Sequence record: PX306536.1
Reading direction: 5' to 3' (one strand)
Source: a phage
DNA length: 14,939 bases
The notes beneath the pieces are model-generated. The model searched no databases and was not told the DNA's origin. It worked only from the letters and a program-made list of their open reading frames with translations. Shown piece by piece: positions 9,801-14,796 of this stretch. Every line of letters starts with the position of its first letter. Positions within the stretch are counted from its first letter, which is position 1. A program made the translations under genes and the position numbers.

Positions 9801-9944
9801 ATGCAGCTAATCACTGATATGGCGGAATGGTCTAAAAAGCCATTCCGCCCTGATATGTCGCTAACCGGCTGGCTTGCGTTTGTGGGCCTAATCATTGTTG
9901 CCATTATCCTTTGGCAGCAAATTATCCGTTTCATTATCGAATAA
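9801..9944 (+). CDS. Small membrane protein, 47 aa (size matches PRD1 P22; assignment uncertain)
   Basis: ATG at 9801 after GGGGG; one transmembrane helix; start codon sits in the left arm of an 11-bp inverted repeat, with an in-frame Met7 at 9819. Confidence 0.5.
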   Translation: MQLITDMAEWSKKPFRPDMSLTGWLAFVGLIIVAIILWQQIIRFIIE

Positions 9945-11089: not shown

Positions 11090-11200
11090 ATGAAAACCGC
11101 CATTTTTATATTGGCTGTAATGTTTGCGGCTTTGCTTTGGCTAGGCCGCGAGCATTGCATTTTGTGCCAATGGTTCAAACGCATTTCAAACGGGGCTTAA
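11090..11200 (+). CDS. Small membrane protein, 36 aa (unnamed ORF)
   Basis: ATG at 11090 following GAGGG; transmembrane helix FILAVMFAALLWL; exactly fills the XXX-XI gap. Confidence 0.4.
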   Translation: MKTAIFILAVMFAALLWLGREHCILCQWFKRISNGA

Positions 11201-12189: not shown

Positions 12190-12999
12190 ATGGCTGGTGC
12201 GCTGCAATGGTGGGAAACTATCGGCGCGGCTTCGGCGCAATATAACCTTGACCCGCGCCTAGTGGCCGGGGTTGTCCAAACGGAATCATCCGGCAACCCC
12301 CGCGCCATTTCAGGCGCGGGCGCTATGGGTTTAATGCAGCTTATGCCAGCGACCGCCAAAAGTTTAGGCGTAACAAACGCCTATGACCCTACACAAAACA
12401 TTTATGGTGGCGCGGCCCTTTTGCGTGAAAACCTTGATAGATACGGCGATGTTAATACGGCGTTGCTTGCTTATCACGGCGGAACTAATCAAGCAAATTG
12501 GGGCGCTAAAACAAAATCTTATCCGGGTAAGGTTATGGAAAATATCAATTTGCTTTTCGGTAATAGCGGCCCGGTAGTAACGCCAGCGGCAGGAATTGCG
12601 CCAGTATCCGGGGCGCAAGAAATGACCGCCGTTAATATCAGCGACTATACCGCGCCTGATTTAACGGGGCTTACTATGGGGGCGGGTAGTCCTGAATTTA
12701 CAGGCGGGGCTAGTGGTTCATGGGGCGAAGAAACGCCAGAAGAAAACGTGCCGTGGTATCGCGTAGATAAGCACGTTGCGAACGCGGCGGGTTCCGCTTA
12801 TGACGCGGTGGCAGGGGCAGTAAGCGCACCAGTGGAAGCGGCAGGAAACTACGCCTTGCGGGGCGTGGTAATTATTGCGGCGGTGGCAATTGTTGTTGTT
12901 GGTTTGTACTTCCTTTTTCAAGATGAAATTAACAGCGCCGCCATGAAGATGATTCCAGCCGGTAAGGCGGCAGGGGCAGCGGCTAAGGCAATGTCATGA
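12190..12999 (+). CDS. VII: Virion lytic transglycosylase P7 (SLT domain) with C-terminal membrane anchor, 269 aa; C-terminal portion may also be made as P14
   Basis: SLT catalytic signature VVQTESSGNPRAISGAGAMGLMQLMPATA; C-terminal transmembrane helix VVIIAAVAIVVVGLYFLF. Confidence 0.9.
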   Translation: MAGALQWWETIGAASAQYNLDPRLVAGVVQTESSGNPRAISGAGAMGLMQLMPATAKSLGVTNAYDPTQNIYGGAALLRENLDRYGDVNTALLAYHGGTNQANWGAKTKSYPGKVMENINLLFGNSGPVVTPAAGIAPVSGAQEMTAVNISDYTAPDLTGLTMGAGSPEFTGGASGSWGEETPEENVPWYRVDKHVANAAGSAYDAVAGAVSAPVEAAGNYALRGVVIIAAVAIVVVGLYFLFQDEINSAAMKMIPAGKAAGAAAKAMS

Positions 13000-13349
13000 T
13001 GGGAAATGATGAATGGTGGAAGTATCTAATTTTTCCGCTAGTGGCTACGCTTGGCGGAATTGTCAATTACTCAAAAAGGGCGCTTGCCATGAAACGCTTT
13101 TCTAAACTTGAATTTGCGGTTGAAGCGGTAAGCGCCGCGTTTGTGGGCTTGATGGTAACGCTAGGCGGGGCGGCTATGGATTTATCGCCGCACTGGCTAG
13201 GCATGGCGGCGGGAATGTCTGGATGGATGGGCGCGGATTTTGTCAAGGCGGTTTTCTCGCAATTTGTGCAAAGCAAGATTGGCCCTATCAATCAGCCGGG
13301 GCCGATAGATTCCGACAATGACAAGCCGGGGCGAACCTTCAATGATTAA
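12996..13349 (+). CDS. XXXV: Holin P35, 117 aa
   Basis: Multiple hydrophobic helices with a charged C-terminus, located directly upstream of a spanin pair; ATGTCATGATG overlap with the VII stop. Confidence 0.8.
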   Translation: MMGNDEWWKYLIFPLVATLGGIVNYSKRALAMKRFSKLEFAVEAVSAAFVGLMVTLGGAAMDLSPHWLGMAAGMSGWMGADFVKAVFSQFVQSKIGPINQPGPIDSDNDKPGRTFND

Positions 13350-13704
13350 ATGGGTTTTGTCTAACCTGAAAAGCGTGGCCGCTATTGCGGTTGCGCTTTT
13401 AATGCTTGCTAACTTTGGTTATTCAATTTTAGCGGCTAAAAAAATAACGGGGCTTCAAAATGAAATTAAAGCCATTGAAGAAAAGGCGACCGCAAACGCC
13501 AAAGCGGTGGAAGCCCTTCAATCAGTACGCGCAAGCGATGCGAAAGCAATCGCGGCAATTCAGGAAGGCCAGACAATTATCAGCGGCAAACTTAGCCGAA
13601 CAATTAGCGGATTGGGAAGGGTAAGCGATGAAACTAAACAAATTCTTGATAGTCCTATGCCTGCCGATGTTCGCGGCTTGTTCAACAACAGCCCCGAAAA
13701 TTGA
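13318..13704 (+). CDS. XXXVI: Rz-like inner-membrane spanin P36 (alternative start ATG 13342)
   Basis: N-terminal transmembrane helix followed by a coiled-coil-like periplasmic domain; overlaps the holin 3' end. Confidence 0.7.
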
Positions 13705-13900
13705 AACCGTTTATCTGGTTCCGCCGCCAAGCCTGCTAACTGAATGCGCCGCGCCTGTTTATCCGTTTATAACGTGGCGGGATTTGGTGGAAGCATACGC
13801 AAAAGAAAAGGCCGCAAGGGAATCATGCGGCCTTCAAATTCAAGAAATAAAAAACTGGTTTAAAGAAACAGTTCCAAGCGAAAGCCGAAAGTTTCAGTAA
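13628..13900 (+). CDS. XXXVII: Rz1-like outer-membrane lipoprotein spanin P37, 90 aa, overlapping the XXXVI 3' end in another frame
   Basis: Signal peptide with lipobox-like FAAC then Pro-rich VPPPS; own RBS GGGAAGGG (13612-13619). Confidence 0.7.
13801..13834 (-). terminator. Intrinsic terminator for the leftward early transcript, embedded in the XXXVII coding sequence
   Basis: 9-bp GC-rich stem AAGGCCGCA/TGCGGCCTT (13808-13816 and 13826-13834) with a 9-nt loop, followed on the minus strand by UUCUUUUG; lies 26 nt beyond the gene XIX stop. Confidence 0.55.
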
Positions 13901-14144
13901 TCAGCTTGCCAAGCCATTCAGCTTGCGTAACGCCAGCGGGCGTAAAACCGTTATCGGCAAACCGCAAATCAAAATGTTCGCTTACCACGCGGATAGCGCC
14001 CTTGACTTGATAAACAGCGGCAAGCGCGGTGCTGCCATACATAAGCGATGAAGCAAAAGGCGTTTGTCCAAAGTCGCCGGGAATGGACACAAAATAAAAT
14101 GCCTTCGGGCATTCAGGGCGGTTATTTTCGGTTTGCTTTTCCAT
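13860..14144 (-). CDS. XIX: ssDNA-binding protein P19, 94 aa
   Basis: Minus-strand ORF with RBS AAAGGTAAC upstream; second gene of the right early operon; 3' end overlaps XXXVII convergently. Confidence 0.75.
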
Positions 14145-14177: not shown

Positions 14178-14204
14178 GGCCCCGCGCTGGTATCAGCCGG
14201 GGCC
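14178..14204 (-). other. GC-rich stem-loop in the XII-XIX intergenic region (possible attenuator or RNA stability element)
   Basis: GGCCCCG...CGGGGCC with extra inner pairing, roughly 11 bp with one bulge and a 4-nt loop; followed on the minus strand by AUUCUUUA. Confidence 0.4.
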
Positions 14205-14216
14205 GTGGCGCGTTGA

Positions 14217-14699
14217 TTAGGCTTCGGCCTTGGCCTTGGCCTTGGCGGCGGGCTTGGCTTCGCCAGCGGCTTCACCGGCAGCGGCAGGGGCAGGCAGCGC
14301 GGCCTTAACCTGATTGCGAAGCGCGGCCAGTTCATCCGATGCGGCGGGTTCAATCAGCGGCTTGACACCGTATTCATAACCAGTGTTGCCCTTTTCGGAA
14401 GGCTTGGCCCAAATTTCAACCGCAAAATCAACCGTGTTTTCACCATCCACGGCACCGGCAAGCAGGCTTTCCAGTACCTTCGGCAGAATCAGCGCACCGG
14501 AACGGAACACTTCACCAGTGGCGATATTCACGCCTTCAAATTCACCTTCAAACTTGATGAAGTCGCCAAAGGTGGATTGACCAACTTTCTTACCGCGAAC
14601 GCGGCCATAGATGGAAGCCAGCGCGGTATTTTCCTTGATGCTGTGCGGCTTCGGTTGTGCGCCAATGGTTTTCAGAGTCAGCTTGCTTACGATTTCCAT
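14217..14699 (-). CDS. XII: ssDNA-binding protein P12, 160 aa, with Ala/Lys-rich C-terminal tail
   Basis: 160-aa minus-strand ORF, first gene inside the right ITR; RBS AAAGGTAAC; tail AAKAKAKAEA encoded by a GGCCTT x3 repeat. Confidence 0.88.
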   Translation of the reverse strand: MEIVSKLTLKTIGAQPKPHSIKENTALASIYGRVRGKKVGQSTFGDFIKFEGEFEGVNIATGEVFRSGALILPKVLESLLAGAVDGENTVDFAVEIWAKPSEKGNTGYEYGVKPLIEPAASDELAALRNQVKAALPAPAAAGEAAGEAKPAAKAKAKAEA

Positions 14700-14768
14700 G
14701 ATAGTTACCTTTAAAGTTAAGTGGAAGTTATCGGCGGGGGTTTTGTGTTTGCCCTTTCGATGATTGAA

Positions 14769-14796
14769 ATTATACGCGCATTTTTAGGACGTGCAA
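14769..14796 (-). promoter_or_regulatory. Sigma70-like early promoter for the right early operon (XII-XIX)
   Basis: On the minus strand: TTGCAC (14791-14796), 16-nt spacer, consensus TATAAT (14769-14774), AT-rich upstream; about 70 nt upstream of the XII ATG. Confidence 0.6.

Follow-up and report, generated by a model that had tools for sequence, protein, structure and literature searches.

Gene organization at the right end of the genome

The 14,939-nt stretch of DNA analyzed here (hereafter the window) is the complete genome of a PRD1-like alphatectivirus, bounded by perfect inverted terminal repeats of 110 bp. Over the full length it shares 97.9% identity with Burkholderia phage vB_Bco-CSP1 and 97.5% with PRD1, and no identical deposited record was found for it in the phage collection. 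PR5 (AY848687) equals the window in length and in the coordinates of the right-end genes, with an identity there of only ~94–96%; overall, the window is nearer to PRD1 and CSP1 than to PR5.

At the right end, the late lysis cassette on the plus strand converges with the right early operon on the minus strand (Table 1). The last gene of the cassette, XXXVII, encodes a protein (P37) that matches the Pfam family of Rz1-like LysC proteins (PF23793) with 68.5 bits (cut-off 27, E=4.9e-19). Its N-terminus reads as a signal peptide ending in a Cys, the lipobox being judged by eye and unscored, and the start of the gene is nested in XXXVI in another reading frame, an organization that corresponds to the overlapped spanin architecture. 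In relatives, XXXVII is annotated either as ORFv or as an Rz1-like spanin, and the same right-end gene annotation is found in PRD1, PR3, PR4, PR5, PR772, L17 and the newer PRD-colour isolates. The promoter that we located upstream of XII coincides with the feature annotated as "right early promoter" at positions 1530–1557 of GenBank M30146, which correspond to about 14768–14795 of the window.

XXXVII and XIX meet tail to tail. Their ends at 13900 and 13860, and the resulting overlap of 41 nt, had been read correctly in the first-pass annotation, as the ORF list confirms, and the overlap is already evident in the GenBank annotation of PRD1 (ORFv/XXXVII and XIX). Its length is constant across the 24 genomes compared, and 41 nt are annotated in each of the 23 relatives retrieved, 16 newer isolates among them and including a divergent clade (PRDamber, rose, sepia, canary, aquamarine and wine) in which P19 is only ~57% identical. 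The sequence of the overlap is not unusually conserved: about 11 of its 41 nt are changed in the divergent clade, as are the C-termini of both proteins.

Table 1. Coordinates of the genes and sequence features at the right end of the window
Feature	Position	Strand	Description
Holin gene XXXV	12996–13349	+	Pfam PF16083
i-spanin gene XXXVI	ends 13704	+	From the ORF list
XXXVII (P37), Rz1-like outer-membrane spanin	13628–13900	+	90 aa; final gene of the late lysis cassette
Conserved island	13781–13842	both	62 nt; holds the longest strictly invariant run (13781–13815) of the 2.5-kb right-end alignment
U-tract UUCUUUUG	13800–13807	-	Adjoins the stem on its 3' side; together with the two final bases of the stem it reads UUUUCUUUU; RNA release is predicted here
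Putative terminator hairpin	13808–13834	-	9-bp stem and 9-nt loop in PRD1-type genomes; first in the genome-wide terminator scan
Spacer from the XIX stop codon (13862–13860) to the hairpin	13835–13859	-	25 nt; stop-side half variable, hairpin-side 13835–13842 invariant
XXXVII/XIX tail-to-tail overlap	13860–13900	both	41 nt, from the ORF coordinates
XIX (P19), ssDNA-binding protein	13860–14144	-	94-aa ORF, named after the annotation of relatives; closes the right early operon
XII–XIX intergenic GC-rich hairpin	14178–14205	-	GGCCCCGGCUGAUACCAGCGCGGGGCC then AUUCUUUACCC; weak U-rich tail
XII (P12), ssDNA-binding protein	14217–14699	-	From the ORF and annotations; opens the right early operon
Right early promoter	14769–14796	-	-35 TTGCAC (14796–14791), 16-nt spacer, -10 TATAAT (14774–14769)

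A hairpin and a U-tract inside XXXVII

Within the reading frame of XXXVII, the first-pass annotation had placed a 9-bp hairpin followed, on the minus strand, by a U-tract, and the coordinates it gave (13808–13834) proved exact. The arms, AAGGCCGCA (13808–13816) and TGCGGCCTT (13826–13834), enclose the 9-nt loop and form nine perfect pairs, six of which are G-C. Folding of the minus-strand RNA, suggested in the same annotation, yielded a stable hairpin, with −15.4 kcal/mol for the hairpin alone and −18 kcal/mol (z=−2.3) for a 91-nt context. The U-tract reads UUCUUUU and is present in the minus-strand RNA only; on the plus strand the stem is followed by CAAAUUCAAG (continuing CAAAUUCAAGAAAUAAAAAAC), which is not a U-tract. 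The 9-nt loop found in PRD1-type genomes is above the typical size, and the U-tract is broken by one C.

Hairpin and U-tract together occupy codons 58–69 of XXXVII. The stem is encoded in the codons for K-A-A and C-G-L, whereas the U-tract is the complement of GCA-AAA-GAA (A-K-E), that is, of A-rich Lys/Glu codons, and it is unchanged in 27 aligned sequences. Six positions of the stem are third-codon positions, and all of them are Watson–Crick complementary to a first-codon position of the opposite arm. The region had been described as under constraint from two reading frames together with a folded RNA. For the hairpin and the U-tract, one frame plus a structure is what we find: the hairpin lies outside the overlap, in XXXVII only, so that the phrase is inaccurate for it, and the stretch in which two frames do overlap is separate and begins 26 nt away. 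By eye, and in the window only, the XIX frame on the minus strand remains open for 30 codons beyond its UAA stop (13770–13859) and crosses the hairpin, which is probably a coincidence of antisense coding.

Terminator scoring and chance expectation

Both strands of the whole genome were scanned for terminators with a score of the d'Aubenton-Carafa type, which combines hairpin energy with a T-tail score; the classical discriminant formula is reportedly due to d'Aubenton-Carafa and colleagues in 1990. The hairpin at 13808–13834 ranked first among all candidates on both strands (d=17.0) and was the sole positive on the minus strand, and the T-tail score of its U-tract (4.39) is among the highest of the genome. 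A simpler terminator scan did not list it, because its loop of 9 nt exceeds the limit of 8 nt used there. Three features usual for an intrinsic terminator are present, namely a GC-rich stem-loop, a U-tract directly 3' of it and a site past the last gene on the same strand. As an independent line, the minus strand of 13795–13873 gave only sub-threshold Rfam matches to small RNAs that end in a terminator, the best being suhB/mmgR (26 bits for a threshold of 41, E=0.009) and ctRNA (20 bits for a threshold of 50); no family reached its gathering threshold, and both of these best matches are terminator-like only.

How often would such a site arise by chance? A hairpin and U-tract of equal or better score occurred somewhere in 52 of 100 dinucleotide-shuffled genomes, and perfect inverted repeats of at least 9 bp with a loop of 3–12 nt are found at two loci in the genome for 1.1 expected. 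The bare pattern of hairpin plus U-tract, taken genome-wide, is not beyond chance. Its position is a different matter: about 0.7 such candidates are expected per genome (both strands), which amounts to about 0.002 for the correct strand over the first 100 nt past XIX. The choice of codons was assessed by synonymous recoding of the XXXVII codons at 13781–13858, drawn with the codon usage of the phage itself. The observed score was reached by 11 of 1000 recodings, and 113 of 1000 scored positive, so that the K/E/A-rich peptide itself predisposes to a terminator. It is position, codon choice and conservation, and these only, that set the site apart from a random one.

These numbers bear on an alternative in which the palindrome and the A-rich run are by-products of coding that follow from a conserved P37, and early transcripts end elsewhere, by Rho or by run-on. 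The positive recodings speak for it, as does the fact that hairpins this good are not rare genome-wide by chance; residues 50–72 of P37, moreover, are invariant in amino acid except at one codon, so that part of the conservation described below is due to protein constraint. Coding as such leaves three observations unexplained: the invariance of third-codon positions (1/19 varying, against a background of 46%), the complementarity of the six wobble positions of the stem together with a codon tuning within the top 1%, and two natural stem substitutions that alter the protein yet retain pairing in the minus-strand RNA. We regard this alternative as quite unlikely.

An invariant island in a polymorphic region

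The right 2.5 kb were aligned for 24 genomes. The XXXVII/XIX region is the most polymorphic of the right end, with a pairwise diversity of 0.15–0.4, and the same hot spot of polymorphism was noted by Quinones-Olvera et al. in their own collection (PMC11015023). The hairpin and the U-tract lie in a sharply bounded island of 62 nt in the midst of it. A BLAST search of the phage collection with the island found it at 95.2% identity or more in 76 of 76 alphatectivirus records, 46 of them being identical; it is 100% identical in PRD1. When codons with an invariant, degenerate amino acid are considered, synonymous variation is seen at 1 of 19 in the island and at 197 of 426 elsewhere (Fisher P=1.8e-4). 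The comparison of synonymous variation across PRD1-like genomes, which the first-pass annotation had named as a check, thus turned out in its favor, such variation being suppressed at the site. The XIX stop, the spacer of 25 nt and the hairpin keep their places even in the clade whose P19 is only ~57% identical.

What variation there is falls mainly in the loop. The codon at 13823–25 has four alleles (TCA, ACT, ATT and AAT, encoding Ser, Thr, Ile and Asn) that differ at up to three of three nucleotides, which indicates that the island is old and constrained and argues against a recent sweep. The alleles ACT, ATT and AAT lengthen the stem to 10–11 bp and leave a loop of 5–7 nt. Outside this codon, the variation in the island amounts to three stem substitutions, each in a single genome. 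The first, 13816 A>T in PR5, opens only the pair that closes the loop. The other two, 13830 G>A in PRDaubergine (Gly to Asp) and 13829 G>A in PRDmahogany (Gly to Ser), alter the P37 protein.

None of 11 stem pairs shows a compensatory double change; two have one-sided changes to G·U and six never vary. Support for the structure comes, as a consequence, from conservation and from the two wobble changes. More distant relatives were sought in three ways. A search with the P37 protein returned alphatectiviruses only, a scan of IMG/VR with a P12 profile gave only three near-identical loci, and a degenerate DNA pattern preserving the amino acids, run against metagenomes, gave one hit, which was identical. 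Since these searches yielded no distant relatives, there were no compensatory changes to be found.

Conservation extends beyond the hairpin and the U-tract, to 20 nt past the latter (13781–13800, with seven synonymous sites, all invariant) and to 8 nt upstream of the stem. A terminator leaves these flanks unexplained. Two other conserved stretches were observed in the alignment. The second-longest strictly invariant run (28 nt, 13598–13625) lies inside XXXVI, just upstream of the start of XXXVII, and presumably reflects the ribosome-binding region of XXXVII together with the coding constraint of XXXVI. About 180 nt in the 5' half of XXXVI (13335–13514) have a pairwise diversity of 0.014–0.03, even toward the divergent clade, which may be due to recent exchange or to strong constraint; low-diversity stretches are thus not unique to the island.

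The island is also a recombination junction. Haplotype classes of the left flank (13705–13780, N-terminal part of P37) and of the right flank (13843–13905, C-terminal part of P37 with P19) occur in eight combinations in 24 genomes, crossovers are inferred on either side of the loop codon, and with the divergent clade blastn similarity is lost near 13922. One could argue from this that the island has been kept, or recently homogenized, as a homologous-recombination linker joining the right early module to the late/lysis one, and not on account of an RNA signal. Recombination, though, exploits conserved stretches and does not create them, a codon with four alleles in the middle of the island is hard to square with a recent sweep, and neither the palindrome nor a U-tract confined to one strand would be accounted for. 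We find such an origin very improbable; it is more likely that recombination at the island is a consequence of its conservation rather than its cause.

Constraint on the synonymous sites of XXXVII could come, in addition, from a hidden overlapping gene. The ORF list contains a 39-codon plus-strand ORF (13744–13863) that spans the island. The ATG of this ORF is confined to PRD1-type genomes. A stop at 13816–13818 interrupts the frame in PR5, and in L17, PR3 and the divergent clade the frame does not open before 13783. In most genomes, the remaining plus-strand frame is interrupted at 13773 and 13850. Given the unconserved start, the stop in PR5 and the frame closed upstream of 13783 in the genomes just named, we rejected this ORF, and the chance that a hidden gene shaped the island appears negligible.

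Strand assignment of the structure

The two substitutions that change Gly of P37 differ in their effect on the two RNA strands. In the minus-strand RNA they produce G·U pairs, and the hairpin retains −12.7 kcal/mol (PRDaubergine) and −13.2 kcal/mol (PRDmahogany). In the plus-strand RNA they produce C·A mismatches, and the corresponding values are −7.8 and −8.8 kcal/mol. These stem variants, which are the one strand-diagnostic line of evidence, point to the minus strand (n=2; 25% by chance).

They also weigh on the proposal that the structure acts in the plus-strand late mRNA, in the stability or processing of the spanin message or in ribosome pausing on it. The plus-strand RNA folds equally well (−22.7 kcal/mol, z=−2.7), its fold includes a possible outer helix (13781–13786/13835–13840), and this helix matches the edges of an island that is wider than the terminator. 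Against this, the outer helix has no variation by which it could be tested and its outermost partner, 13780, varies freely (G/T/C), the natural stem variants cost the plus-strand hairpin 6–7 kcal/mol and the minus-strand hairpin only 2–3, and the U-tract exists on the minus strand only. Furthermore, the two natural isolates already suggest that pairing can be lost on the plus strand only, without an effect on P37 level or lysis timing. A plus-strand role in place of a minus-strand one seems to us distinctly improbable.

Proposed termination of the right early operon

We consider it likely that the hairpin and U-tract of the minus strand (13834–13800) terminate the right early operon (promoter–XII–XIX) in a Rho-independent manner. 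The first-pass annotation had proposed that the early operon terminates on the minus strand within XXXVII, and the U-tract on one strand, the position past XIX, the top score, the suppressed synonymous variation, the near-invariance in 76 genomes and the G·U stem variants all agree with it. From these sequence features, and from the position, strand asymmetry, codon tuning and conservation of the site, we infer transcripts that end near 13800. No terminator feature is annotated in the PRD1 records (AY848689/NC_001421 and M30146), and in the accessible full-text literature we found no description of a right-early terminator or of transcript 3' ends for PRD1. Promoters of PRD1, and possibly its transcripts, are said to have been mapped by Gerendasy and Ito in 1990, by Pakula in 1990 and by Grahn and colleagues in 1994.

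According to this proposal, early transcription would proceed from the right early promoter (14796–14769) through XII, the intergenic GC-rich hairpin and XIX. Host RNA polymerase, once past the XIX stop at 13860, would add 25 nt before reaching the hairpin, and this spacer should leave a ribosome halted at the end of XIX too distant on the upstream side to cover it. Formation of the hairpin and of UUCUUUU would then release the mRNA near 13800, and the positions of promoter and terminator predict an early transcript of ~960 nt. Antisense transcription of the lysis cassette and of the late genes from the early promoter would thereby be prevented. The signal would be placed in the coding sequence of the convergent XXXVII because the genome is tightly packed. 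Late transcription may pass the site and finish XXXVII, 66 nt further on, since no U-tract follows the hairpin on that strand.

If the early operon does end here, the site defines where the right early transcription unit of PRD1-type phages stops, and it accounts for an invariant island with sharp limits amid the highest polymorphism of the right end, because one stretch would serve both a protein and an RNA signal of the other strand. The terminator, unmarked in the public records compared, could then be added to their annotation. It would also matter to anyone engineering PRD1-type phages or the protein-primed replication system of PRD1, since early termination would be lost if XXXVII were recoded at the island. 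In the mosaic of alphatectivirus genomes, the island marks the place of exchange between lysis and early modules. That a compact genome nests intrinsic terminators in convergent genes is to be expected; this element, though unusually well conserved, is ordinary for such a genome and leaves general concepts unchanged.

Late read-through and antisense RNA

On the plus strand, no intrinsic terminator was found from 13900 to the right end, the best candidate having d=−8.4. Late transcripts may, as a result, run antisense over XIX and XII, or be stopped by Rho. Antisense RNA to XIX and XII made by late read-through, which the first-pass annotation had predicted for the early genes, is plausible from the sequence. 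The C/G ratio of the plus-strand RNA reveals C-rich stretches at 13901–13978 and 14369–14602, which are suggestive of sites that could serve Rho. Conversely, an early mRNA ending near 13800 would be complementary to the final 100 nt (13801–13900) of the XXXVII message.

A more elaborate role can be imagined, in which the island is a regulatory node for both strands: the tail of the early mRNA, antisense to the o-spanin message, and late RNA, antisense over XIX and XII, would help to time the early-to-late switch and lysis, and the flanks at 13781–13800 and 13835–13842 would serve an RNA–RNA contact or a plus-strand function. Were this so, the flanks that are conserved beyond the terminator would gain such a role. 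We think it unlikely, and advance it as speculation.

Comparison with known terminators

Like canonical Rho-independent terminators of the E. coli type, the element consists of a GC-rich stem-loop and a U-tract some tens of nt past the last stop of the operon. It differs from them in lying inside the coding sequence of a convergent gene and not in an intergenic region, in its loop of 9 nt in PRD1-type genomes (5–7 nt in other lineages) and in the one C of its U-tract.

In bidirectional terminators, which are active on both strands, the hairpin is preceded by an A-tract and followed by a U-tract. Here, the hairpin is followed by a U-tract on one strand only, and no plus-strand candidate was found at the site; it is therefore not a bidirectional terminator. 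As in bacterial convergent gene pairs with overlapping 3' UTRs, which form cis-antisense RNA, the transcripts would overlap at their 3' ends.

The nearest analogue at the level of the whole system is phage phi29, in which Rho-independent terminators mark the zone where late transcription meets right early transcription (PMC11476376). Its genome resembles that of PRD1-type phages in being linear and protein-primed and in carrying early operons at its ends. The elements are unrelated in sequence, only an early-strand terminator is recognizable here, with no late terminator found on the plus strand, and the convergent genes overlap by 41 nt, which is why the terminator would lie inside a gene.

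Other hairpins in the genome

The GC-rich hairpin between XII and XIX lies just past the XII stop in 24 of 24 genomes, within an otherwise very variable spacer. In the divergent clade it is shortened, and a second hairpin of 10 bp is inserted in the spacer. It could be an internal attenuator or a processing site that sets the P12:P19 ratio.

Terminator-like hairpins were also seen on the plus strand in coding regions, at 13373–13396 in XXXVI (d=12.7) and at 1572–1606 (d=4.9). The former, which lies in the stretch of XXXVI encoding its hydrophobic N-terminus, may be a by-product of coding. The only other perfect inverted repeat of at least 9 bp with a short loop is at 9821–9849 (GGCGGAATGG ... 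CCATTCCGCC, 10 bp with a 9-nt loop). Finally, the strongest structure in the terminator scan, a 44-nt plus-strand hairpin at 11116–11159 (−28.7 kcal/mol) with TTTTGTGCC directly after it, is a candidate for either a terminator or a processing site in the late region.
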